Virus record (IMG/VR): IMGVR_UViG_3300037883_000122
Location: 1-64,000 of that record
Reading direction: 5' to 3' (one strand)
DNA: 64,000 bases
DNA from: a virus
Shown: positions 7,021-21,311 of the stretch, piece by piece
Numbering within the stretch: the first letter of the stretch is position 1
Layout of the letters: the number at the start of each line of letters is the position of its first letter
Made by a program: the position numbers and the translations under genes
The notes under the pieces: model-generated
The model's database searches: none
Told to the model about the DNA's origin: nothing
What the model saw: only the letters and a program-made list of their open reading frames with translations

Positions 7021-7036
7021 ACATATATTACTAACT
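7021..7036 (+). promoter_or_regulatory. phiKZ-type early (virion RNAP) promoter, TATATTAC
   Basis: ACATATATTACTAACT. The core matches the phiKZ early consensus TATATTAC; a near-identical copy is at 52321; it precedes the nvRNAP-subunit operon. Confidence 0.75.
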
Positions 7037-8330: not shown

Positions 8331-10001
8331 ATGGCAGACCGTGAACTTTCTCGGCTAATTGATCTCCACACCCCCAAGCTAAACCCGGATCTCGCAAATG
8401 GACTTGCCCAAAAGCACATGCAGGATGCCGAAGGGTGGGTGAATAGCGTGTTCCGAGCGGTGGCGCAAGGGTTTCCTGATGGATTCACTTACGTAAAGGG
8501 GGAAAGATGTACACCGCAGGAAGAGTTCGACGAGGCAACTCGTAAGAAGAACAACAAGCGAATGTTCGACGTTGCCCGTTCGGACATTTACATGATGAAG
8601 TACCTCTTTCGCCATATCGATCCGAAGACCGGTAAGGTGGAAGAAATCAAACGGTATATGTATCTGCCGTTTGTGTCGGACGCAGGGGTGATCTATCTCG
8701 GCGGGTCGCGCTTTGTGATCTCGCCGATTCTGGCCGACCGAGTGATCTCGAAGGGGGAGTCCTCCATCTTCGTGAAGCTCATCCGGGCAAAGCTGACCTT
8801 CCAGCGCGAGCAGCAGCATTTCCTCGCGAACGATGTTACGGGGCGTGACTTCCGTGAGACCGTTCACGTGGCCTGGTCCTTGGTGTACAACAAGAACCAG
8901 AAGATGCAAAAGCTCAAGCCAGTGATCAAGGCGAACACGACGTTGGTCCATTACTTGCTGTGTAAGTATGGATTTGCGGAAATGTTCCAGCGCTTTGCGG
9001 GCACTGTACCGATCGTGGGAGATGCGAGCACCATCAGCGAGGCAGAGTATCCGCCAAGCGACTGGGTGATCGTGAAGACCAATACCCACACGCGCCCTGC
9101 TCGGACGTACACCCTGAAGTCCTATACGCCCACGACGATACGTCTGGCTATCCGCCGGAGTGAGTACACGCAGCAGGTCAAAAACCTGGTGTGTGGCTTC
9201 TACTATCTCGTCGATCACTTCCCCAATCGGGTGCTGCCGAAGTATATCGGTACCCTTGCGGAACCCAAGCCGCGTGAGCGTGCATTGTGGATGATCTTGA
9301 TGGGCCATCTGCTTTTCTCGAGCAACATCAACGAGGGCAAGCTCGAGGACGATATCGCTGAACACATCCGCAGTCTGGATGAGTACATCGATGAGGTGAT
9401 GAAGATCAAGTTCAAAGACATCGGCATGCCGGTGGAGGACATCTACCAGTTGTTCGGTATTGTTCTCGAGAACTTCCAAGACTGGATTCTGGCGGCTCAG
9501 GATCAGGTCTCGAGCATGTACGACAAGGAGCTGTCGGTCCTCTACTACGTGCTGGATGAAATCACCAAGCAGATCAACAAGTTCTACTTCAAGCTGAAGG
9601 CGGCTTCGAAGAAGGAACTGAACGCGAAAGAAATCACGACCATGATGAACCAGACACTCCGGACCGGTCTGGTGTATTCGATCACCAAGAAGCACGGTGA
9701 GGTTTCGACTATTTCGTGCCCCGGCGACAATAAGGCGTTCAAGACGACCGCCCAGTTGGTGCCACAAACGAGTTCCAGTCGTCAAACGGGGCGGAAGGAC
9801 AACGCGGCAATCAGTGACCCGACCAAGCAGATCCACATCTCGGTGTGTGAAGTCGGTGGCTACGCGAATCTGCCGAAAAGCGATCCTTCCGGACACGCAC
9901 GTCTGAATCCGCATTTGCATACCGATGCGAAAGGCGTGGTGTTACGCGATCCGGGACTCATTGAGTTGCTGGACCAAACGCAGCAGAAGTTGAAGCAGTA
10001 A
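8331..10001 (+). CDS. Non-virion RNA polymerase beta-like subunit (phiKZ gp123-like)
   Basis: YLPF..G.I.LGGSRF.ISPILAD and HISVCEVG...LPKSDPSG.ARLNP motifs; three genes downstream position relative to capsid conserved with phiKZ order. Confidence 0.82.
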   Translation: MADRELSRLIDLHTPKLNPDLANGLAQKHMQDAEGWVNSVFRAVAQGFPDGFTYVKGERCTPQEEFDEATRKKNNKRMFDVARSDIYMMKYLFRHIDPKTGKVEEIKRYMYLPFVSDAGVIYLGGSRFVISPILADRVISKGESSIFVKLIRAKLTFQREQQHFLANDVTGRDFRETVHVAWSLVYNKNQKMQKLKPVIKANTTLVHYLLCKYGFAEMFQRFAGTVPIVGDASTISEAEYPPSDWVIVKTNTHTRPARTYTLKSYTPTTIRLAIRRSEYTQQVKNLVCGFYYLVDHFPNRVLPKYIGTLAEPKPRERALWMILMGHLLFSSNINEGKLEDDIAEHIRSLDEYIDEVMKIKFKDIGMPVEDIYQLFGIVLENFQDWILAAQDQVSSMYDKELSVLYYVLDEITKQINKFYFKLKAASKKELNAKEITTMMNQTLRTGLVYSITKKHGEVSTISCPGDNKAFKTTAQLVPQTSSSRQTGRKDNAAISDPTKQIHISVCEVGGYANLPKSDPSGHARLNPHLHTDAKGVVLRDPGLIELLDQTQQKLKQ

Positions 10002-10095: not shown

Positions 10096-12171
10096 ATGGT
10101 GAATTTACAAGGTGGTCAGCTGCCTGCAGACCCGTACAACGCGGAACGGCAGCCTCTGCAGGGTATCTCGATCGGTAATCCCCCATTCGTCCCGCAGTTC
10201 AATGCGCCGGGATTCATGGGTGATCTGATCCCTGTGATTGCTGGTGCAATTGCGACGGACATTCAGGAGAACGCGCTGCGCACGCCCGCGCGCATGTTCA
10301 CGTATAACCTGGTGTCGCGCAACGCCTTCCAGAACGAAATCTTTGCAGGTCTCGTAATCGGAGTGACGGACTGGGTCTGTCTGGCGCTGGCAGATCGTAA
10401 GTTCCAGAACCCAGAACAAGCAGCGCAGGCACTCGTGCCGAAGATGGTCGAGATGTTCGTGGCCATCCAGATTCTGCAGTACCAGGAGTTGCAGAAGGAC
10501 TGCCCGCCGCAAGCGCAGCAGACCGTCGAGAACCTGGGTCGGATCTGGACCGAGTTGCAAAACGAAATCCCGCAGTTCAAGGCATCCAATGTCTACGCGC
10601 AGATGATGCAAGGCGGCTTCGGCGGCGGGAATGTCGGTGGTGGTTGGGTGCAGCAACAGCAAGGCAACCGTTGGGGTGGCGGTGGTCAGGCTGGTGGTCA
10701 GTGGGGTGGAGGCGGTGGTCAGAACCAGGGTGGACGTTGGGGCTCGGGTAACCAGGGCGGTGGCTGGCAGGGCAACCGTCAAGCACCACGTCAATTCACG
10801 GGGATGAACGCCGGTAACACGGGTCTGTTCACGGGCGGTGGCGGCGGCACAGCCGAGGGTAGCAGCTCGGATCGCTTCAACACGGATCGTTTCGCGAGCC
10901 GTGGCGATGCTGCGCAACAACAGCACAAGCCGGACCCCAATTCGTCCTGGGTGCCGAAGAACGCTCCGTCGGAGAAGGTCGACAAGATGACCGTGGCGGC
11001 AACAGCGCCAGTGCAGCAGGTGGAAACGAAACCGGTGCAGAACGAGCCGGAACACATCGACACCACCAAACTGAAGTGGCGTCCGTCGTTGTCCCAGCCG
11101 TATGCGCTGGCGTACAACCCGCGTACGCAACTGATGTATCTGCAACAGCAAGCCGACGGCACTGTTCTCCAGCTCGTGAAAGAAAGGACGGAAATTCCCA
11201 TGGACCGTGAAAAGCATCGCCTACCCACAACCTTCGGTAGCGCACCGAAGAACGTCGATACCAGCAAGTCTGCCGAATCGCTCCAACGCGTGAAGGCTGG
11301 CGTGAAGGAACTGACGGCAGTGGTCGGCGACGGTGAAGCGGGCGAAGAACCGCCGAAGCGTCCGTTGGTGCAGGTGATCGAAGATGCATGGGTGCTGGAA
11401 ACGTCGGAAACCCTGGCGTGGCTGCAAGGTACCCTGAAGTGCATGGCAACGGTGAAGGACTCGCAAGTGCCGGACGTGTTCCGTGTGCGTGCGCAAGTGG
11501 CCGAGCCGTTCGTCGCAGCAGTGGACGAACGTGGTGCGATCCAGTCCTTTGCAGAAGCGAAGTCGTACTCGGAACTGCGCGAGATGATGTTGTCGGTGGA
11601 AGGTGCGATGTCGGCGGCGCTGTATCAGGCCGTCAACCTGCGCATGACCGATGTCATCAATCGCGTGCTGGGCCAGAGCCTGTCGATTCCGGATATCCGC
11701 ATCACGTCGTTCGTCGACGACGCGGAAGATGTGGGTCCGGCGATCGAGCAGTACTACGGTGATGCGTTCTCGAATGCTTTCCTGGGCAACCAGGTGAAGA
11801 ACATTCGCGCAGCGTTTGCCGAGTTCGTCACGGAAGAAGAAGAGGTGCTCCTCACGGAGAACCTGCTGATGGATCGCGAGTATTCGAAGGACAAGGGGCC
11901 GAAGATCACGTATCTCGTCGCCAACTTCACGCTCACGTATCTGAACGTGTCTGCTATCGAGCTCGAGTTGGAACTCGATCCGGCGGACAAGATTGCCTCG
12001 ATGATCACGAGCGATCTGCCGGAGTTGTACGAGCTGGCCCGCAGCATCTTCGAAGCGACGGAAGGCGAGAATTTCCATCGCCATCTGATTCGCACGGCTG
12101 ACGACCATCTGCTGGAAGTCACGCAAGGCCTCATTGGCCAGGACGTGTATCTGATCCGTAAGGTGAAGTAA
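10096..12171 (+). CDS. Conserved hypothetical protein with G/Q/W-rich low-complexity linker
   Basis: 691 aa, AAGGA RBS, host-like codon usage, internal GGW/GGQ repeats. Confidence 0.8.
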   Translation: MVNLQGGQLPADPYNAERQPLQGISIGNPPFVPQFNAPGFMGDLIPVIAGAIATDIQENALRTPARMFTYNLVSRNAFQNEIFAGLVIGVTDWVCLALADRKFQNPEQAAQALVPKMVEMFVAIQILQYQELQKDCPPQAQQTVENLGRIWTELQNEIPQFKASNVYAQMMQGGFGGGNVGGGWVQQQQGNRWGGGGQAGGQWGGGGGQNQGGRWGSGNQGGGWQGNRQAPRQFTGMNAGNTGLFTGGGGGTAEGSSSDRFNTDRFASRGDAAQQQHKPDPNSSWVPKNAPSEKVDKMTVAATAPVQQVETKPVQNEPEHIDTTKLKWRPSLSQPYALAYNPRTQLMYLQQQADGTVLQLVKERTEIPMDREKHRLPTTFGSAPKNVDTSKSAESLQRVKAGVKELTAVVGDGEAGEEPPKRPLVQVIEDAWVLETSETLAWLQGTLKCMATVKDSQVPDVFRVRAQVAEPFVAAVDERGAIQSFAEAKSYSELREMMLSVEGAMSAALYQAVNLRMTDVINRVLGQSLSIPDIRITSFVDDAEDVGPAIEQYYGDAFSNAFLGNQVKNIRAAFAEFVTEEEEVLLTENLLMDREYSKDKGPKITYLVANFTLTYLNVSAIELELELDPADKIASMITSDLPELYELARSIFEATEGENFHRHLIRTADDHLLEVTQGLIGQDVYLIRKVK

Positions 12172-12185
12172 AACGTCCAACGACG

Positions 12186-12225
12186 GGTCTGGGGGGTAAC
12201 TCCCAGACCTTCTTTTTTTATGCCC
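12186..12225 (+). terminator. Intrinsic terminator
   Basis: GGTCTGGG..CCCAGACC stem followed by TTCTTTTTTTATGCCC. Confidence 0.8.
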
Positions 12226-12246
12226 GTGTATGCCTGAGGAGGCGTC

Positions 12247-12690
12247 ATGAATCTCAAGGTCAATGAAGATCTGGAAGCACTGAATGTCCACGATAAGCGG
12301 ATGAACGTGCTGGTGACCGGCGGTAAAGAAGATGATCGCGCTGTTATCCAGGACGTCATCTTCAACGCATTGGAAGGAGCGGGCTTTCGTAGCCTCTATT
12401 ACGAGGCGAACGCTTATAGCGCTGAACCGCCGATGGAAGTCAAGTCGATTCTGGATGCCATGAAGGAACAGAATCCTGCTTTCTTCGACATGCCGATTAC
12501 GATCGAGTCGGCGAATCGCATCTACGATACGGTAGGTGGGACTATTACCGAGGCGTGCGATTTCCCCGAGGAAGTCCCGAACAACGAAGCGTGGCAGCGC
12601 GTAACGGATCGTTTGAATCGCCTCCACGGCAACACCGACCGCGGTCCGCTCGAAATGGAAGTCAACGGCAATATCGTGATTCGCTTCTGA
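12247..12690 (+). CDS. Small paralog family member 1 (degenerate P-loop-like module)
   Basis: GAGGAGG RBS; L..AGF and SILDAMKEQNPAFFDMPITI motifs shared with downstream paralogs. Confidence 0.8.
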   Translation: MNLKVNEDLEALNVHDKRMNVLVTGGKEDDRAVIQDVIFNALEGAGFRSLYYEANAYSAEPPMEVKSILDAMKEQNPAFFDMPITIESANRIYDTVGGTITEACDFPEEVPNNEAWQRVTDRLNRLHGNTDRGPLEMEVNGNIVIRF

Positions 12691-12713
12691 AAGACCAAGG
12701 AAACAAGGAAACC

Positions 12714-13862
12714 ATGAAAGTCATCCCGCAGTACAGCTTGGAACACGCCGAATACTTCGTCGACGGGAAGTTCAATCATGCCGAAAACAAAACGGTCACG
12801 ACAGGTCGCTCCGTTCTCAGTGCCCCGCTCGTCATCGCGAAATCGATTCCGTTTCTCGAACTGGCCAAGACAGATCTACTGCTCGAAGAAAATGTGATTG
12901 ATTCGAAATGGGCGATCGATCCTGAGTACGTGCGGCTGGAATCGGTGGCCATCGAATTCCCTGGCTTGCCCAAGCTCATCAGTTCGCATATCGGTCTGAA
13001 TGTCGAAGAGGCGCTCTTTCGTCCGACCGCGCAACACACACCACACCACCTGCTGATCGTCAAGAAGAAGATCCCGGTGATCGTCGGTTTGTCGGAACTG
13101 GCCGCCTGCAGCAGTTACGACGATCGTGCAGCCCATGCACCGCTGCTGCAATATGCAGCCGAGCAGAACCTGCATCTGGTTTTCTCGATGGAGATCTCGG
13201 GTTCGGTGAACATAGCGACCGGCACGGTTCGTCTTTTGTCGAACTCGTTCGATCTCGTGTCGATTCTGGACCACGCAGGCAGACTGCTTGAAGCCACGAA
13301 CAGTGCAGAAATCAATAAACTGCGCGAGTACGTGAAAGACGCACATCCGCGCGGCTACTCGTTGGATGCGAACTGGCTACAGACGAACGAAGCCCAGACC
13401 TATCAGTTCGAGATGGGTGACCCGAATCCAATCGGTCGCGGCATGGCACTCCTGGTGCGCGGTTATCTGTTGTCGGCTCCTTCGGTCGGCTACGCAGCAG
13501 AGATCACCGAACCCTCGGTGAGCAAGGTCGGTGCCACCAAACTCTACCTACAGCCTGATCGTACCTCGGAACCGGAATGGTACGTGACGATCGAGGAAGG
13601 CTTTGAGTTGTCGCCGGGTGAGTGCAACATCGCGTTCCATGCTCACGGCACGGAATGGGCCAACGTACTGGACGATAACAACGAAACGATCAAGCGCTGG
13701 AAAGAGCTCGGTCGTTGGGAAAGTATCGCACCCGGCGCGTACGGTTTGTGGGTCGAAGCAATCGCGCAATTCCTGCTGGATGGCGAGGAGTATTATTTGA
13801 CGAACACGTTGCCGGATACGATTCCCGAAGGTGTGGGGTATCGCGCAACTGACAACGGTTAA
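12714..13862 (+). CDS. Major-capsid internal-domain paralog fused to an uncharacterised domain
   Basis: ATG 12714 with AAGGA RBS. Residues 1-219 align to capsid residues ~235-445; the C-terminal half resembles ORF 13896..14297. Confidence 0.8.
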   Translation: MKVIPQYSLEHAEYFVDGKFNHAENKTVTTGRSVLSAPLVIAKSIPFLELAKTDLLLEENVIDSKWAIDPEYVRLESVAIEFPGLPKLISSHIGLNVEEALFRPTAQHTPHHLLIVKKKIPVIVGLSELAACSSYDDRAAHAPLLQYAAEQNLHLVFSMEISGSVNIATGTVRLLSNSFDLVSILDHAGRLLEATNSAEINKLREYVKDAHPRGYSLDANWLQTNEAQTYQFEMGDPNPIGRGMALLVRGYLLSAPSVGYAAEITEPSVSKVGATKLYLQPDRTSEPEWYVTIEEGFELSPGECNIAFHAHGTEWANVLDDNNETIKRWKELGRWESIAPGAYGLWVEAIAQFLLDGEEYYLTNTLPDTIPEGVGYRATDNG

Positions 13863-13895
13863 GTCAGAGACCATCCTGAAAGGAGTAAGTGACGC

Positions 13896-14297
13896 ATGAG
13901 CGCCCGTAAGAACCCTGTCCTTCCCGTGACTGTTTCGATGGCTGATAACGTGCCGAATCCGTTCGGTTACGCGATCATGGGAATCCTGCAGGCTAAGCTG
14001 TTAGCAGTGCGTTCGGTATTTCCGAACATCCAGCTGAAAACTATGTACGTGTGTGAGACGCCGGATGAAATGGCCCACACCCAGTTCTGCTTCCTGGATC
14101 TGAATCGCATGGGAGACAAAATCCCCTATGTGACGATGAGTGAGTACCAGGACCCAGACGGTGAAGTCCGCTACGATCTCTGGTTACACCAGGACGGTCG
14201 AGTGGAAGAACTCTTCGTCGAGGCGATTATCGAAGAAGTAGTTGTGGCTGCCAATACCGTCTGGACGCACCTCAAACCGCAGGCGCTCTCGAAGTAA
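13896..14297 (+). CDS. Hypothetical protein, paralogous to the C-terminal domain of 12714..13862
   Basis: AAGGAG RBS; MADNVPNPFGYAIMGILQAKLL compared with MGDPNPIGRGMALLVRGYLL. Confidence 0.7.
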   Translation: MSARKNPVLPVTVSMADNVPNPFGYAIMGILQAKLLAVRSVFPNIQLKTMYVCETPDEMAHTQFCFLDLNRMGDKIPYVTMSEYQDPDGEVRYDLWLHQDGRVEELFVEAIIEEVVVAANTVWTHLKPQALSK

Positions 14298-14368
14298 AAC
14301 TTACGACCCCGAACCATCAGATGGAGAGCGCTCCGGCGTTCTCCGTCTTATGAACCCAGCGAGGAAAG

Positions 14369-14818
14369 ATGAGTCCCGAAGACATCAACATCACCGTCGA
14401 AGCCCAAGGCGCAGAAACACGCCAACTGGTTGCGAGTTTGATCTCCAACCGTCTGACGGAGGCGGGCTTCACGAACGTCGACGTGGGTCTCGCGACCCGC
14501 GAAGACAAAACGAGCACGCCCATCGCCGCGGAAGCGATGCCGTCGTTGCTCGACGCAATCAAAGAAGCCAACCCGGCTGTGTTCGCACGTCCGGTGAGCA
14601 TTCTGGCCATGCCCTTTAGCGACATCATCGACGGCGAGCGGATCGTCCACGTGGCGTTGATGAAGGATCGGTCGGATATGGAAGAAGGTCCGGAGCTGGA
14701 GCCGGGCCAAGGTCGTTTGGAAGACGGCACGATCATCGATCTGGCGACCTATGTGTCACCGGACGGAACGCGACTGGCAGAAGCTCTGATCGAAGTCGGC
14801 GCGGGTCAACACGTCTAA
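14369..14818 (+). CDS. Small paralog family member 2
   Basis: GAGG RBS; LTEAGFTNV...SLLDAIKEANPAVFARPVSI. Confidence 0.8.
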   Translation: MSPEDINITVEAQGAETRQLVASLISNRLTEAGFTNVDVGLATREDKTSTPIAAEAMPSLLDAIKEANPAVFARPVSILAMPFSDIIDGERIVHVALMKDRSDMEEGPELEPGQGRLEDGTIIDLATYVSPDGTRLAEALIEVGAGQHV

Positions 14819-14827
14819 GGAGTACGG

Positions 14828-15439
14828 ATGGCACAGGTATCCGAACGCTTCGCTGCCCAAAAGGAACGCATCCTGGAACGTCTTCAGGAAGGCCCCTTAA
14901 CGGCATTAGAAGCCTTGGAGAATTTGGGTGTCATGCGAATGGCTGCCCGAGTTCACGATCTGCGAGCAGACGGTCATCCGATCGTTTGTGAGACTGTCGT
15001 TGTGCCTAACCGATTCTCGGAAGAAAGTCGGGTGGCACGCTACAGCTTGCAGCCCGAACAACATAATCAACCTACGAAGCAGGGAAGTAACATGAGCGAA
15101 GCACTTGACAACAATCCGACGCAAGCCGCAGGCATCATCATTGCCTCGGACAACATCAACCAGCGTCAAGCTATCTCGGTTGCCGTCAGCAAAGGTCTGA
15201 AGGACGCCGGTTTCACCAACGTCACGGTGGTGGTCGACAAGAGCGACGACCCCAGCCGGATCGACGTCACACCCGAAAATGCGGAATCGCTGCTCGGCTC
15301 GATTAAGGCCCTCAATCCCGGCCTCTTCGACGCGCCGATCAACATCCTCGCCGCAACGGGCGGTGGCGCGGGCGCAGAGCTCGTGCAGGACATCATGGCC
15401 GACGCCCAGGAAGACGGCTCGGCAGTGACCACGTTCTAA
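14828..15439 (+). CDS. Winged HTH (HTH_39-like) domain fused in frame to paralog family member 3 (internal start 15092)
   Basis: QKERILERLQEGPLTALEALENLGVMRMAARVHDLRADGHPI...VARYSL, then LKDAGFTNV...SLLGSIKALNPGLFDAPINI. Confidence 0.75.
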   Translation: MAQVSERFAAQKERILERLQEGPLTALEALENLGVMRMAARVHDLRADGHPIVCETVVVPNRFSEESRVARYSLQPEQHNQPTKQGSNMSEALDNNPTQAAGIIIASDNINQRQAISVAVSKGLKDAGFTNVTVVVDKSDDPSRIDVTPENAESLLGSIKALNPGLFDAPINILAATGGGAGAELVQDIMADAQEDGSAVTTF

Positions 15440-15514
15440 GCAGTAATCGTCACCGGCTTGCCCTGCTTCGGCAGGGCAGCTATGCCTCTTTACAACGGAA
15501 ACAAGGAAAAGATC

Positions 15515-15859
15515 ATGTCTCTGGAAGAGCACGAAGAAGCCGCAGCCAGTATTGTCATCAGTGCACGCAGCAGCGACCTTGCCCAGGCTTTGGGTAAGGT
15601 TGTTGGTCATGCGCTGACGGAAGTGGGCTTCAGCAGTGTCACTGTGACCCACAGTGACGAGGAGGGCGAAGAAGCGGTCGATCAAACCGATCTGGAGCAA
15701 GGCAAGTCTTTGCTGGAAGCCATCGCGGATGCGAACCCGGATACGTTCCGTGGTCCGATTGCGATCCACAGCTTCGGCTTGAGCGATGAGACGGATATGC
15801 TCCCGCCGGAAGAATCAGCACACCTCGCCGAGATCATTGCGGAGAACGACGAGGATTAA
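15515..15859 (+). CDS. Small paralog family member 4
   Basis: AAGGA RBS before ATG 15515; LTEVGFSSV...SLLEAIADANPDTFRGPIAI. Confidence 0.8.
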   Translation: MSLEEHEEAAASIVISARSSDLAQALGKVVGHALTEVGFSSVTVTHSDEEGEEAVDQTDLEQGKSLLEAIADANPDTFRGPIAIHSFGLSDETDMLPPEESAHLAEIIAENDED

Positions 15860-15874
15860 CCCGAGGAGAGTAAG

Positions 15875-16363
15875 ATGGAGACGCCAGTCAACATCTTGGT
15901 GGAATCACCCGATCCGCTCAAGGCGAATCTGGTTGGCAAGGCCATCGCACAGAGCCTGAGGGACAGCTATGGCTTTAACACGGTCATGCATGCCCATGTG
16001 TTGGTCGACACACCGGAGAGCCGTTCCTGGACGGTGTCGACTGCTGAGGAGCAGGAGGAGAGTATTCTGCAGGCCATGGTGAATCTCAATCCAAGCATCA
16101 TGGACACGCCTGTTACTGTCCTGAGCCGCGGCAACGACGACACGTCTGAGCCTGACATCTCCAAGATCGACCAGCTGCAAGGGCATCGTGGGATTCTGCT
16201 TCAAGGCATCGGTGACGAAGCAGTAAGCTTTGATGAGCTGCGGGAAAAGGCGTGGCAGGCGGCTCAGCCCACGCTTCGGCCGATGGTCGAGAAGTTCGCC
16301 CAGGAAATGATTGACATGTTCGATAGCTCGGGCTTGTCGGCCACCGGGGTCAAGAAGTTCTAA
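15875..16363 (+). CDS. Small paralog family member 5
   Basis: GAGGAG RBS; LRDSYGFNTV...SILQAMVNLNPSIMDTPVTV. Confidence 0.78.
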   Translation: METPVNILVESPDPLKANLVGKAIAQSLRDSYGFNTVMHAHVLVDTPESRSWTVSTAEEQEESILQAMVNLNPSIMDTPVTVLSRGNDDTSEPDISKIDQLQGHRGILLQGIGDEAVSFDELREKAWQAAQPTLRPMVEKFAQEMIDMFDSSGLSATGVKKF

Positions 16364-16408
16364 TGCAGTAGCGGGTGGAGCAATCCACCCGTCTTAAGGA
16401 GAGAAAAG

Positions 16409-18370
16409 ATGACGAATCGCTTCAAAGCAGGCGTGCGCGTGACCATCGACGGTCACTGCCATACGGGCAAAACAATCCTGATGCAGGCTTTCGCGGCCTT
16501 TCTGGAACAATGTGGCTTTCCGGCGGAACAGATCGCTCAATTGTGCGACACGCATGAAGGCGCGCGTATGAAAGGCCAGGATGCTATCGATTACCTGAAG
16601 AAGGCGATTGCCGACGGTCTCTGGAAGGACAACCAGCTGGTCTTCCTCGAGCGCATCGTACCGCGTGCCTTCCGAGCCGATCCGGCCAAGCCGATGATTC
16701 TCGAGTGGGATGCCATGCCGGATCTGTCGCAACACGCACTGCCGCACAATCCGGCGTTTGCGCTGCCACATTCGCAGGTGGAGTTCGAGATGACGAATCG
16801 GCCTTCGAAAGCAGACGCGGTCCGTAACAGCCTGCTGGTGATGCTGAAGTTCGCGGGTGTGATGGCCGCCATCAAGAACTCGCTGCCGCAGGGTGTGACT
16901 GTTCCCACGGATGTCGAGGAATGGATCGCGAAGGCCGGGGTCTTCGCAGAACACACTGATCCGGCACGCTTGGATGCTCCGGACGTGATTGCTGAAACGA
17001 ATCGCGACTACTTCAACGTGTGGGCTGCGGGTGGCGACTCAGTCGCAGGACGTGCAGCTCAAAAACGCCTCATGTTCGCCGGAATGGAAGTTCCTGAGAT
17101 CAAGGGTGTGCGTTTTAAGGATTCGTCCAAGCTACTCCAGCCCAAGCGTTTCTGGCAAGCAGGTTCTCCCGGTGCACTGTTGCTCAACGAAGCAGACCCT
17201 GCTGCAGAACTGACAGCCAGTCTGTGTCGTCGTGGTTATCGCGACTTCTTCGAGGAGCACGCGATCGGTAACTTCGACGTCGTCGATCGTGAACGGGCAG
17301 GGTTCTATTACGATCGTGCCCGTGAGGAGCAGGAGCCGAACAATCCGCACCGGGCGATGATGGAAGTGAGTGTCTATCGTAAAGACAGAGTACCCCTGAC
17401 GAAGGAGGCAGTCGAAACCGCTCGTCAGATGCTCTTCCAATACGATCCGCTCATCATCCTGACGGTCAAGCTGCAGAACTCCAGTCTTTCTGGTGCTCAT
17501 GTCTCGGCCAGCAAGCCGTTGTTCAAGAAGCAACCGCGTGGGATGACCTCCGCCATCTTGCATTTCGATGATGCGCCGTTCCAACCGCGCCTGGAAACCT
17601 TGGCGGACATCACCAAGAACCACTTCGCAGTGCGCGCTACGGACGCTCGTCCTTTCACGCCTGAAGGTGGTTGGCCTGCAGACTTTGATGTTGCACCGTA
17701 TCGCCAGCAGATTCATCCGATCACGGGTGAAACGCTGAATCAAATGGCGGATCGCGCTCAACCGTTCATCAAGACGAAGAACCTGGGCGAACATGTCGCA
17801 CTGGACTACTCGGATCTTCCGGCGGATCTGATGTTTGATCCGAAGTGCGGTGTGCGCTGGAAGACGACGGCTGAAATGGCAGAAACGCAGGCTGAAGTGG
17901 ATCGAATCTTCGACGCTGTGCAGGATGGAACCGCACAAATCGTTCGTGATGGTACCGGTGAAGTCATGATGGTGTTTTTGCCGACACCAGCTGATGAAGT
18001 TCGGGTTCTGAATCCGGAACCGAAGCCCGCGTACTTCAGCGGTATTACGGATGATTCTGCGCAGGCATCGGCGGACGTGAAAGACCTGTTCGCTGAAGCG
18101 CCGCCCATCAGCAAAGGCCTTCAGTTGACTCCGGAGCAGTCGCAGCAGTTCGAAGAGCGTCTAGCCAGACCAGCTCCGCCTACCGAAGCAATGAAGAACG
18201 CGCTGGACAAGCTTCGTTTCGGTGCGCCGGTAGTTAACGCAGAGCCGACGGCGTTCAGTGTTCTCGAGGGTGACAAGTCTTCTGTCCAACCAGCACCTAC
18301 CAGCAACCTGACCAAGATCCACGACGGCGGTACGAACGGCAATCGCTTCTTGCCGCCTTCTGACGAGTAA
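16409..18370 (+). CDS. Mosaic protein: N-terminal P-loop module plus antitoxin-like segments
   Basis: AAGGAG RBS; Walker A GHCHTGKT; later segments resemble Phd/YefM and the DUF1778 C-terminal motif. Confidence 0.75.
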   Translation: MTNRFKAGVRVTIDGHCHTGKTILMQAFAAFLEQCGFPAEQIAQLCDTHEGARMKGQDAIDYLKKAIADGLWKDNQLVFLERIVPRAFRADPAKPMILEWDAMPDLSQHALPHNPAFALPHSQVEFEMTNRPSKADAVRNSLLVMLKFAGVMAAIKNSLPQGVTVPTDVEEWIAKAGVFAEHTDPARLDAPDVIAETNRDYFNVWAAGGDSVAGRAAQKRLMFAGMEVPEIKGVRFKDSSKLLQPKRFWQAGSPGALLLNEADPAAELTASLCRRGYRDFFEEHAIGNFDVVDRERAGFYYDRAREEQEPNNPHRAMMEVSVYRKDRVPLTKEAVETARQMLFQYDPLIILTVKLQNSSLSGAHVSASKPLFKKQPRGMTSAILHFDDAPFQPRLETLADITKNHFAVRATDARPFTPEGGWPADFDVAPYRQQIHPITGETLNQMADRAQPFIKTKNLGEHVALDYSDLPADLMFDPKCGVRWKTTAEMAETQAEVDRIFDAVQDGTAQIVRDGTGEVMMVFLPTPADEVRVLNPEPKPAYFSGITDDSAQASADVKDLFAEAPPISKGLQLTPEQSQQFEERLARPAPPTEAMKNALDKLRFGAPVVNAEPTAFSVLEGDKSSVQPAPTSNLTKIHDGGTNGNRFLPPSDE

Positions 18371-18396
18371 CAGTTTTACCATGGCTGTAGTACTTT

Positions 18397-18451
18397 GACG
18401 GCATAGAGCGAGGACCCTAGGGTCCTCGCCTTATGACCGTCTTTTTTTTTT
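18397..18451. terminator. Bidirectional hairpin between convergent genes
   Basis: GACGGCATAG-A-GCGAGGACCC-TA-GGGTCCTCGC-CTTATGACCGTC followed by a T run. Confidence 0.8.
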
Positions 18452-18458
18452 GGTCTAT

Positions 18459-21311
18459 TTAGACCGGTGAAGGTGCTGCACCCATCGCTTCCGGATCTTC
18501 GTCTTCCGGGTTCAACGGCGATTCGCTACCCGAGCCTGTACCAGCACCCGTGTCAGTCCCTCCGGCTTCATCACCGAAGTCACCGAATCCACCACCTCCG
18601 AAGTCTCCCATCCCAAAGTCGTCTGTGCCGCCACCAGAGGCCGCACCAGCGCCTCCCATGTCCATCCCGCCACCCATACCACCTGCAGCGCCACCATTCG
18701 TCTGGTCGGTCTCCTTACGCTTCTGCTCGTTCAGATTCGCCGCATCCTTGATCGGCTTGATGCCGTTCATGAAGTGGTCGAGGACCTTCGTGACGTTACC
18801 GATGTGATCCTGGAACGAATCCCAGAGGTTCAGCAACGGACGGCCGTCATCATCCAGCGTCGTGAGCTCAGCGAGTTCCGGCATGACGCCATTCTCACCC
18901 AGCCACTTACGGATAAAGTGAGCCTTAGCCACTTCCTTGATGGTGCTGATGTAGTTGCTGACGTCGCCACCCACATCGGCGGTGAACCAGTTCGACGAGA
19001 TGTACGAGTCCAGTGCAGCATCGACCGTCTTGGTGTACGTGTCGAGGGCTGCCACTTGGTTCTCCAGCGTGACCGAGTTCGGCTTAGGCAAGGTGACTTC
19101 CATGCCCATCACGAAGTCGTACAGCAACTGCTGGATCACCAACTGCTTCGGCTGGCTGCCGAGGTTGGTCTTGTACGTCGGGTCGTCCTTGTGCGCTTCG
19201 TCACGTGCCTTCAGGCGTTCGATCACCTTGTCCGCATTGGCTTCGAGAATAGCACGCAGATCTCGGATGAGCTCTTCGTCATTCATCATCACCTTGCGGA
19301 TGTGGTCAGCCAGTTGCGGCTCGATCACTTCCTGAATGTTCATCACACGCTTGGAGAGCAGGATGTTGTTGGTGAGCACCGAGGTCGCAAACTCCGCCTC
19401 GAACGCTGCATCCACGGACTGAGGCGTGAGACCCAGACCCATGATCGAGCGCTTACGCAGGTCGTCATCCAGCTCATTGTCGACCTTCGCGTAGTTGGTG
19501 TTCTTCTCACCGAACTCCACCGTCATGTCAGGCAGACCAGGATGGCCTTCCGGCACGAACTCGAAGCCTGCACGCTGCACCCAATCGACGATGTCCATCG
19601 GACTATTCGTACCAACCGGGAACGCCTGTTGACGCGAGCGCAGGATTTCGTGCACCACACGCTCAAAGGTCTTCTGCGGGTCAGGATCGTGCTCGTCCAT
19701 CTTGATCTTGACTTCGGTCCGACCCATCGAGTTCTTGACTGCCGCCATCACGTTGGCAAACAAGAGCATCGAGCGCAGCGAGTTGATGATCTTCAGGTCG
19801 TCCAGCATCGACTTACCCATGCCGTCGCCGTTATAGCGCAGCGCGAAGTACGTCATGAACTCGATCGGCATGAAGAGCAGCTGCGTGTGTTGCTTAGCGA
19901 GTGCCCGTGCAAACATGATGCGGTACACTTCTTCACGCTTAGCCAACGCCACGCCGTTGCCGTAGACACCATTGCGCAGACGAGCCAACAGATCTTGCTC
20001 GATCATCTCACCGTAGACGCGTGCCGAGTAATCCAAGTGCGCGTTGTTGGTGTTATCGAACCCCTGCATGTTCGCCTTGACCTTCTGCAACATCGCAGAC
20101 GGGAACGAACCGCCGGAATTCATCCGAGCATTCAGTTGCTGGTAGTAGTCAACGTCCGCAATGCGCTGGATCGGGTGACCGTCTTCATCGATCAGGATGA
20201 AGAAGCCCACGTGCTGTTCGATGTTACCCGGCACGAACACCGGGATCACGGCTTCCGACGGCAAGTGCATGATCAGCGGGCTGCCTACAGCACGGCGATT
20301 CAACTGCTCTTGCGTCTTGAGCGTCGTGATCGGCTTGTACTGATAGTTGCGATCCCGATAAATCAGGTTCGACAACTCGCGGTCATTGATCTTCTCCTTG
20401 CGCAGGCTGCCGCCAATCTCATGCACCATGGTCGTACCGTGACCATCGGCCCCGTAGGCTTCCATAGCGCGCATGCCGCGCGAACCCATCAAATCCATGA
20501 TCCGTTGTTCACGAATCTTCTGGTTGACCTGCGGGATCTTGAGCAGCGAGTAGTTATCCGTCACCGTCGTGAAGGTTTCCTGACCCTGGCCTTCGAACGC
20601 CAGCTGCAGTCCCATCTGGGTGTCGTATGCCGTATCGAAGCGATAATCCTGCATCGATTCAAACGAGATCGACGAGCCCTTACGCTCTTCGCGCGGCTTG
20701 TTCTTGATGACCGGACCGAGCAGACCGAGCGGCTTGATCTTGCCCTCGCGATCGAAATGCTCCGTGAGTGACTCCATCGTCACCTTGCGCGGACCATTGA
20801 TCACGTCGTCGATTGCATTCTCCGGAATCACTGCAACCGGATAGCTCCCAGTCTCGAACAGAACGTCACGCAGCAGGCGAGGCAAGACCTGCTTTATTTT
20901 ATAGTTCTGTTCAAAATGGACGCGAACACGATTGGTCATTGCCGTGTTCACTTCCGGTGTGACCAAGTTCTCCGGGGCTTTATAAACCAGCTCCACAGTC
21001 ATCATGTCTTTGGGCGAAAGCACCGAGGACACGAGAATCTGTGCAGCCAGTTCCAACTCCGGAAGCGTCTGCATCACGGTCTGAGCATCAGAGATGTTCT
21101 GAACCGTATTGTCCGAAACGTTCTTCAACGCCTGGATCGACGGATTGTCCGTCGTCATGTTCCCGGTGCTGTCGTAGCGGGGAGGCGTTTTGCCGTGCAC
21201 AAGCTTGCTAACAGTGGCGGCCATGCCAGGGTCCGATCGGACCAGCGACATGGCTGAGTAGCGTTTACCACTGCCAGCCAGCGCAATGGCTTCCTTCAAC
21301 GCTTTGGACAT
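18459..21311 (-). CDS. Portal protein (phiKZ gp129-like)
   Basis: 950 aa; LPELELAAQILVSSVLSPKD, HLPSEAVIPV.PG and G.GKSML motifs; N-terminal x-x-E protease sites; acidic Gly-rich tail. Confidence 0.8.
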   Translation of the reverse strand: MSKALKEAIALAGSGKRYSAMSLVRSDPGMAATVSKLVHGKTPPRYDSTGNMTTDNPSIQALKNVSDNTVQNISDAQTVMQTLPELELAAQILVSSVLSPKDMMTVELVYKAPENLVTPEVNTAMTNRVRVHFEQNYKIKQVLPRLLRDVLFETGSYPVAVIPENAIDDVINGPRKVTMESLTEHFDREGKIKPLGLLGPVIKNKPREERKGSSISFESMQDYRFDTAYDTQMGLQLAFEGQGQETFTTVTDNYSLLKIPQVNQKIREQRIMDLMGSRGMRAMEAYGADGHGTTMVHEIGGSLRKEKINDRELSNLIYRDRNYQYKPITTLKTQEQLNRRAVGSPLIMHLPSEAVIPVFVPGNIEQHVGFFILIDEDGHPIQRIADVDYYQQLNARMNSGGSFPSAMLQKVKANMQGFDNTNNAHLDYSARVYGEMIEQDLLARLRNGVYGNGVALAKREEVYRIMFARALAKQHTQLLFMPIEFMTYFALRYNGDGMGKSMLDDLKIINSLRSMLLFANVMAAVKNSMGRTEVKIKMDEHDPDPQKTFERVVHEILRSRQQAFPVGTNSPMDIVDWVQRAGFEFVPEGHPGLPDMTVEFGEKNTNYAKVDNELDDDLRKRSIMGLGLTPQSVDAAFEAEFATSVLTNNILLSKRVMNIQEVIEPQLADHIRKVMMNDEELIRDLRAILEANADKVIERLKARDEAHKDDPTYKTNLGSQPKQLVIQQLLYDFVMGMEVTLPKPNSVTLENQVAALDTYTKTVDAALDSYISSNWFTADVGGDVSNYISTIKEVAKAHFIRKWLGENGVMPELAELTTLDDDGRPLLNLWDSFQDHIGNVTKVLDHFMNGIKPIKDAANLNEQKRKETDQTNGGAAGGMGGGMDMGGAGAASGGGTDDFGMGDFGGGGFGDFGDEAGGTDTGAGTGSGSESPLNPEDEDPEAMGAAPSPV

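Follow-up and report, generated by a model that had tools for sequence, protein, structure and literature searches.

What are five neighbouring small genes of a jumbo phage that seem to encode the first part of a P-loop nucleoside triphosphatase (NTPase) with the phosphate-binding motif gone, and why do they lie beside a gene whose product keeps that motif? The question is posed by a 64,000-nucleotide stretch of viral DNA (positions 1 to 64,000 of IMG/VR record IMGVR_UViG_3300037883_000122; hereafter the window), in which the five genes lie between positions 12247 and 16363 and the neighbour with the intact motif follows at 16409..18370. The answer favoured here, with a probability of roughly 55%, is that the five are paralogs of an unnamed phage family in which shortened P-loop-type domains have been turned into non-catalytic binding modules. 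By gene order and similarity, the window represents part of the genome of a jumbo phage close to Burkholderia phage FLC9. A comparison with 50,697 deposited phage genomes gave FLC9 (321.8 kb) as the sole match to the region 12000-18400 (82.5% identity, 29% of the query), and the order of the genes parallels FLC9 gp88 to gp81. The whole source record is itself a 98.8-kb fragment.

The element shared by the five genes, all of which lie on the + strand, is an N-terminal segment of about 85 residues, present in the genes starting at 12247, 14369, 14828 (where it begins at 15092), 15515 and 15875. Its predicted layout is a first strand, a loop, a helix ending in L..AGF, a second strand, an acidic linker, a helix with the pattern S[IL]LD...NP..F and a third strand with P[IV].I; L29, G33, F34, S59, L61, N68, P69 and P75 are invariant across the five. 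A preliminary description of this DNA, made by reading the letters and translations, had drawn attention to the common pattern, and BLASTP bears it out, with pairs 25-36% identical over 73-91 residues (30-50 bits) and one shorter pair (26 bits over 23 residues). A family profile, a hidden Markov model (HMM) of 167 homologs, matches exactly five of the 789 six-frame open reading frames (ORFs) of the window (E 2.5e-27 to 5.3e-18), with alignments that span HMM positions 1-3 to 83-86, from strand 1 to strand 3. No sixth module appears among these ORFs below E 0.1, the next match having E 0.16, and the whole 98.8-kb record holds no further copy beyond the five.

The individual genes are m1 (12247..12690, 147 residues, isoelectric point (pI) 4.5, HMM E 3.3e-24), m2 (14369..14818, 149 residues, pI 4.3, E 2.5e-27), m3 (E 7.1e-21; part of 14828..15439, 203 residues), m4 (15515..15859, 114 residues, pI 4.05, E 9.9e-20), which has an acidic tail, and m5 (15875..16363, 162 residues, E 5.3e-18), which carries a one-residue insertion before the GF motif and ends in KKF. 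They are small acidic proteins, as first described, with a pI of 4.05-4.7 in all five. The third copy had been listed as an ORF of its own starting at 15092; the module there is real, but the Met at 15092 lies within a longer gene, of which the module is the C-terminal part. Residues 11-75 of that gene's product form a winged-helix HTH_39 domain (PF14090, E 3.6e-14). The fusion of HTH_39 to m3 is taken as real because a protein of another phage (P0040) keeps it at 63% identity; the HTH part is absent from the FLC9-like relatives of m3. Recent duplication of the five modules was considered and rejected, since each lies in its own subfamily, with Shimodaira-Hasegawa-like approximate likelihood ratio supports of 98-100 in what is a quick tree of 98 columns with many unresolved forks. 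The m1 subfamily (14 rows, support 98) has a conserved C-terminal end of the form hydrophobic-IRF.

Beyond the window, a word-seeded search returned 27 relatives, each annotated 'hypothetical' and the longest of their contigs measuring 326 kb, and a HMMER search with a 32-sequence profile against 1.84 billion representatives gave 231 clusters (at 50% identity) with E<=1e-3. Most members are 85-190 residues long with a pI near 4.1, and several lie on contigs of 205-259 kb. Apart from scattered single matches, a scan of 149 members found no Pfam family at E<=0.01. PHROG 38013, whose function is unknown, is the only PHROG found and is matched by 10 of the 149 (best E 9.3e-23); it covers a small, unannotated branch of the module family and detects a single window copy, m5, weakly (E 0.0054), the other four going undetected. 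With no Pfam match and with this sole PHROG, there is nothing to mark the family as an already characterised structural protein, a possibility that had been raised at the outset. Two candidate memberships were rejected. LytR_C (PF13399) rests on a single match, to m2, at E 0.12 and 13.8 bits against a cut-off of 22.2, with none of the 149 members at E<=0.01 and an ESM Atlas feature score of 0.76, below that tool's own informative level; DUF7126 gave a sub-threshold single match only.

The region between strand 1 and helix 1 is where a Walker A motif would be expected, and GxxxxGK[ST] occurs there in none of the five window modules. The aligned positions read GGKEDDRA in m1, AQGAETRQ in m2, SDNINQRQ in m3, ARSSDLAQ in m4 and SPDPLKAN in m5. 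Both observations made earlier about this loop hold, namely that Arg replaces the Walker Lys in three copies (m1, m2 and m3, with Ala in m4 and m5) and that the P-loop glycines are largely lost, the first being kept in m1 only. Across the 167 members, the exact motif is found in this loop in nine, all of them distant from the window copies, and about 12 more have GxxxxG[KR]. Gly occupies the first loop position in 100 of the 167; at the Lys position 87 members have Arg and 24 have Lys, and the loop is rich in acidic residues, with Asp at x3 in 52 members and Glu at x5 in 53. A second site varies together with the first: eight of the nine intact members have Glu after strand 3, where 12 of the 158 others have Glu or Asp (Fisher p 8e-8), and in the non-intact members, window copies included, this Walker-B-like column is mostly Ala, Ser, Thr or Gly. 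When the intact and near-intact members were compared with Pfam, about 19 of the 22 weakly matching families were P-loop NTPase families, aligned at the profile N-terminus. They include the sub-threshold matches AAA (E 0.0054), AAA_16 (0.015) and AAA_18 (0.032), as well as KTI12, nSTAND3, APS_kinase and Thymidylate_kin. The five window copies have no P-loop match in Pfam, even below threshold.

The preliminary description had read the modules as 'dead' P-loop domains related to the N-terminus of the neighbouring 653-residue protein, and both parts of that reading gain support from sequence. In that protein, an N-terminal domain of about 135 residues (16409..16813, + strand) carries an intact Walker A motif, GHCHTGKT; the first 130 residues or so are what is conserved in a small family with seven homologs, in which R10, T12, I13, D14, G15, G20, K21, T22, D47, F79, E81, R82, W100 and P104 are invariant. 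The C-terminal 520 or so residues (16814..18370, + strand) hold no known domain and are fast-evolving, with 33% identity to FLC9 gp81. Four of the module copies align with the N-terminus over 29 residues without a gap, and m5 requires one insertion, just as had been noted. BLASTP finds no link between the 16409 protein and the modules, and the answer from HMMs depends on which part of the family is used. The whole-family HMM aligns the protein in register but without significance (4.7 bits, E 1.4), whereas an HMM of the intact subfamily places it sixth among the 789 window ORFs (E 0.0019).

Profile-profile comparison also links the two. Aligned by hhalign, the 167-sequence core and the 16409 N-terminal alignment are related at 93.9% probability (E 1.7e-7) over 77 columns, in the register first proposed; the score of 42.1 compares with a mean of 10.3 (standard deviation 1.9, maximum 16.9) for 60 column shuffles and with 9.2 for the reversed template. 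These values, and the HMM E-values of the five modules, reject chance or low-complexity similarity. The intact subfamily gives 96.9% (E 1.3e-10), with its Glu after strand 3 aligned to E81. A link due solely to the Walker A motif of a few members was likewise rejected by deletion and masking, since the probability is still 88% after removal of all members with a G[KR] loop, 74% after removal of all with Lys or Arg at the Lys position, and 92.8% with the P-loop of the template masked. The modules thus appear to be homologous to the N-terminus of the 16409 protein and, with the intact motif in nine distant members, they very probably represent an expanded, diversified family derived from a P-loop domain, with a fold predicted to be of P-loop NTPase type. 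Since the five copies lack both catalytic motifs, they are predicted to be unable to act as NTPases.

Two side observations concern the 16409 protein. Residues 571-601 (window 18119-18211) resemble the C-terminal motif of TacA1/DUF1778-like antitoxins (E 0.04), a match that reaches E 1.1e-4 in one homolog and is found in two of the eight family members. Three members of the 16409 family have weak matches to a 'divergent family B DNA polymerase' (E 0.0027).

Loss of a catalytic motif could simply reflect decay, and the pattern of conservation speaks to this. In 17 orthologs of m2 the former P-loop (residues 13-20) is the best conserved segment of the protein, with a mean pairwise identity of 94% against 35-74% elsewhere, and the string QGAETRQ is nearly invariant. 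Among m1 orthologs the loop is 73% identical and helix 1 is 95% identical. Between the five paralogs the same loop has the lowest identity of any segment (12%, tied with the tail). A loop that is conserved among orthologs and divergent between paralogs is expected of a paralog-specific functional site and not of a decaying relic, and by this pattern the former P-loop is not a relic.

A scheme consistent with these observations would start from an ancestral domain with a Walker A motif and a Glu after strand 3, a state of which a single small clade of modules and the N-terminal part of the 653-residue protein would be the survivors. Most of the family, the five window copies included, would have had both motifs replaced and become pseudo-NTPases, presumably unable to hydrolyse nucleotides. 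The former P-loop, together with the beginning of helix 1, would then have been re-used as a recognition surface specific to each paralog, each copy acting stoichiometrically as a binding module for a different partner, which could be a host or a phage protein. A second function may come from the C-terminal tail, which is variable, acidic and mostly disordered, or, for one copy, from the winged-helix DNA-binding domain. This mechanism is offered tentatively, at somewhat short of even odds.

The purifying selection on the loop could also be read as preservation of a residual phosphate-binding site, which would make the modules sponges that bind immune signals derived from nucleotides, or nucleotides themselves. 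Known sponge proteins are small and diversified, as are the modules; ancestry from a nucleotide-binding loop would suit such a role, and so would the retention of Arg in place of the Lys (52% of the family) and of Gly at position 1 (60%). The second glycine and the Ser/Thr are lost, however, and because the loop is rich in Asp and Glu, which should repel phosphates, phosphate binding is unlikely. The wholly different loop of each paralog is a further difficulty, and no known sponge family (Tad1, Tad2 and Acb2 types) was found in general Pfam scans, no dedicated anti-defence library having been searched. A sponge is considered very unlikely.

The location of the genes provides a second line of evidence. 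Eight FLC9-like loci, gathered by way of the gp129-like gene described below, all (8/8) hold five modules and one 16409-type gene in the same order. At the same site in a 219-kb relative (L009) and in phages RP12 and RSL2 the island is absent, and the genes that flank it, one phiKZ gp124-like and the other gp129-like, are nearly adjacent. In three distant IMG/VR jumbo phages of 221-225 kb, the same slot before the gp129-like gene is filled by 6-8 consecutive module genes (L014 8849-12785; L015 8390-12319; L016 9443-13064). These encode proteins of 90-316 residues, with C-terminal extensions of up to about 230 residues and with degenerate loops throughout, and the gp129-like protein of these phages is only 41-45% identical. 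Counted by genome, G003 (224 kb, 100% complete) carries eight modules, G004 nine and G005 seven. Arrays of five to eight copies, and up to nine copies per genome, thus occupy the slot between the gp124-like and gp129-like genes. The module family has no match in 201phi2-1, Xanthomonas phage RTH11 or RSL2. Compared with FLC9, the window has flanking genes at 93-97% identity, modules at 45-82%, a capsid-fragment gene of the island at 60% and the 16409 protein at 33%. The island is a fast-evolving accessory operon, bounded by terminators and set in a variable slot.

The constant company of five modules and one 16409-type gene in all eight FLC9-like loci, together with their adjacency and homology to its N-terminus, would suit a hetero-oligomer in which the modules serve as regulatory or structural subunits of the intact protein, like the inactive subunits of some NTPase rings. 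A P-loop fragment of three strands might moreover leave strand 1 with an open edge, available for pairing with another copy. Such a complex had been among the suggestions of the preliminary description; as a general mechanism it fails, since arrays exist with no 16409-family protein at all. No 16409-family match was found in G003, G004 or G005, with their eight, nine and seven modules, nor in RP12, which has one. Even where both are present, the 16409 protein evolves independently and very fast, as its identity to the FLC9 protein shows. A partnership with the intact copy is accordingly judged improbable.

Isolated copies of the module occur in a different setting. The single copy in RP12, ORF184 (L012 6294-6617), adjoins the dihydrofolate reductase gene (ORF185), and FLC9 has a sixth, divergent copy, gp269 (L013 4888-5271), three genes from thymidylate synthase and three from RtcB ligase (gp266 and gp272). 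The modules could on this basis be accessories of nucleotide metabolism, i.e., remnants of kinases for nucleoside or deoxynucleoside monophosphates (NMP or dNMP) that scaffold or regulate enzymes of precursor synthesis. The best comparison among known proteins is indeed with P-loop kinases (adenylate, cytidylate and uridine kinases, deoxynucleoside kinase (dNK), APS kinase), which likewise have strand 1, a Walker A loop and helix 1 at the extreme N-terminus; the 16409 family shares with them the pattern hh(T)IDG....GKT and an acidic residue after strand 3 (..FVER..). Its only PDB profile matches are weak and cover no more than the P-loop (1rz3, which is uridine-kinase-like, and cytidylate kinase; E 0.17-0.63). 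In the ESM Atlas all ten structural neighbours of the 16409 N-terminus belong to P-loop families (template modelling (TM) score about 0.5), with dNK, APS kinase and thymidylate kinase among the clusters near it, as matches below significance. An adenylate-kinase-6-like protein is the second match of the module profile (E 0.24). Against such a role, all of these kinase matches are below significance, no kinase Pfam model matches the 16409 protein at E<=1, and there are only two such neighbourhoods, the arrays themselves lying in a different context. The conserved domain, moreover, ends near residue 130 in the 16409 protein and near residue 85 in the modules, compared with a kinase core of 170-220 residues. 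The kinases are active and twice the size of a module, which has three predicted strands and no lid, NMP-binding or other substrate part; the five window copies have lost both Walker A and the acidic residue, and Pfam gives no match above threshold. A role in nucleotide metabolism is, like that of a sponge, given little credence.

Returning to non-catalytic binding modules of P-loop descent, several results weigh against this reading. Two AlphaFold2 models of the m2 protein, made from alignments of 32 and 149 rows, have a mean predicted local distance difference test score of 61.5 and 66, with helices at 15-31 and 54-73 and no strand pairing in the core. With these low-confidence models, Foldseek found no PDB match at E<=0.001 (best E at least 2.7), and a wide VIA-align search gave none above Z 3.1. 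ESM Atlas neighbours of the module have generic alpha/beta folds (TM 0.4-0.5). The whole-family HMM does not detect the 16409 protein significantly, as described above, and no member of the family reaches the gathering score of any P-loop Pfam family. The intact members form one clade (support 96), so that Walker A and Glu do not co-vary independently of phylogeny; that the motifs were lost and not gained rests on parsimony with the P-loop superfamily. The single copies near dihydrofolate reductase and thymidylate synthase, lastly, hint at nucleotide metabolism over interference with the host.

The genes that border the island raise one more alternative, that the modules are virion proteins, either packaged as internal head proteins or ejected. 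Upstream lies an operon with a 'polymerase' gene (8331-10001; PHROG 2943, E 2.8e-152), whose 201phi2-1 counterpart, gp203, is annotated as similar to phiKZ gp123, and with the gp124-like gene (10096-12171), recognised by its correspondence to phiKZ-like phages. Downstream, on the minus strand, is the gene for the gp129-like conserved virion protein (18459-21311; PHROG 3004, E 4.4e-234), whose annotations include similarity to phiKZ gp129, portal protein (some phages) and virion structural protein (many phiKZ-like phages). A slot between a capsid-region operon and a portal-type virion gene, fast evolution of the kind seen at internal-protein loci of other large phages, and the presence of a capsid-protein fragment gene inside the island would all fit virion proteins. 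So would the sequence TATG, the core of phiKZ late promoters (PMC4666361), which occurs twice within the 37 nucleotides before 12247. Against this, no module matches the phiKZ internal head families or any virion family of Pfam or PHROG, and the recorded mass spectrometry of 201phi2-1 virions includes products of the genes beside the analogous slot but none of those encoded on the + strand within it (gp205-gp210). The single copies of RP12 and FLC9 lie among genes of nucleotide metabolism, and the upstream operon encodes the gp123-like subunit of the non-virion RNA polymerase. A place in the virion is therefore thought unlikely, though the location of the island lends it some appeal.

The family, which is outside Pfam and has no described function, is best rated as a shortened and mostly inactivated branch of the P-loop superfamily that has expanded into arrays in some jumbo phages of the nucleus-forming type. 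Jumbo phages are rich in paralog families of unknown function; for these modules, both an ancestor and a functional patch are now defined. The array becomes a testable case of the conversion of an enzyme into a binder, in which the loop that formerly held phosphate would be preserved by selection separately in each paralog lineage. Should the targets prove to be host proteins, the arrays would form a new class of genes for host interference or counter-defence, in phages that are being tried for biocontrol of crop diseases caused by Burkholderia and Ralstonia.

The members with an intact motif, at about 100 residues, bear on the minimal size of P-loop domains and on the origins of NTPases. Their nearest counterparts are the designed 'P-loop prototypes', short beta-(P-loop)-alpha polypeptides that were made in the laboratory and bind nucleotides and nucleic acids (bioRxiv 10.1101/2020.07.30.228619, PMC10119929). 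The likeness lies in a Walker A motif set into a beta-alpha-beta-alpha framework of minimal size (about 50-110 residues), of which intact members such as P0147 and P0118 (about 100-130 residues) would be natural counterparts; the family differs in being natural, strongly acidic and mostly devoid of the loop, and its members are known here from sequence alone. Most of the intact members come from Logan or ENA assemblies, and no IMG/VR relatives of P0118 or P0147 were found. A bolder extension, speculative and on balance doubtful, would see a radiating family of minimal P-loop domains (about 80 residues and three strands), the intact members being the smallest natural P-loop nucleotide binders and the dead ones an array-borne toolkit of pseudo-enzymes in some nucleus-forming jumbo phages, in which each rebuilt loop seizes a different host target, for example a protein of defence or of DNA metabolism.

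The island is a single, tight unit of genes on one strand, with a hairpin or terminator at each end. On the left, an intrinsic-terminator hairpin on the + strand (12185-12216, 11 bp of which seven are GC) closes the upstream gp123-like/gp124-like operon, and its T-run leads into TTTATGCC; the feature as a whole is 12185..12224. On the right, a strong hairpin followed by T10 (18396-18453, assigned to neither strand) lies between the convergent stops of the 16409 and gp129-like genes; the 101-nucleotide stretch around it folds at -44.5 kcal/mol (z -7.5). The sequence TTTATGCC occurs at 1984(-), 6766, 6925, 6991, 7449, 12217, 34479(-), 45467 and 50169, nine copies in the window against 0.68 expected, a number reached in 0 of 100 shuffles. 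Seven of them stand directly 3' of GC-rich hairpins at gene ends, and TTTATGCC has the look of a terminator tail specific to this phage. TATG lies within it, and it was considered as proof of late expression; this was rejected because most copies follow gene-end hairpins, convergent junctions included, and are better read as linked to terminators. Another element, TATATTAC, presumably resembles the core of the phiKZ early promoter. It has two exact copies in the window, with no enrichment, one of them (7024-7031) upstream of the 7106 gene that opens the gp123-like/gp124-like operon; no such early-type element precedes the island.

Two genes of the island do not belong to the module family. The first, on the + strand at 12717..13862 (381 residues), matches PF25620 (E 6.8e-17) and phrog_3231 (E 2.2e-14), and its first 225 residues correspond to a part (147-367) of the profile for the PhiKZ major capsid protein. 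It stands alone as a capsid fragment, with gp87 as its counterpart in FLC9. The second, also on the + strand, at 13896..14297 (133 residues), had no family match and is the best conserved gene of the island, with 89% identity to FLC9.

Some minor features of the wider family may be added. Two giant repeat proteins, P0035 (3580 residues, 38 matched stretches) and P0038 (2559 residues), were excluded, since they share only a short repeat unit similar to LL..I..ANP.LF..P.TI. Their units of about 90 residues contain LYQ.YIDANPDLFSSPATI, resembling the motif between helix 2 and strand 3 of the module, and the likeness is probably convergent. Four distant members (P0152, P0122, P0067 and P0131) have an acidic tail that ends in ..FDDIPY, ..EDIPY, ..EDAPY or ..PVEPF, which recalls the C-terminal tip of the bacterial single-stranded DNA-binding protein (SSB), ..DDDIPF. 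Phe is the C-terminal residue in 23 of the 167 members, compared with an overall Phe content of 2.9%.

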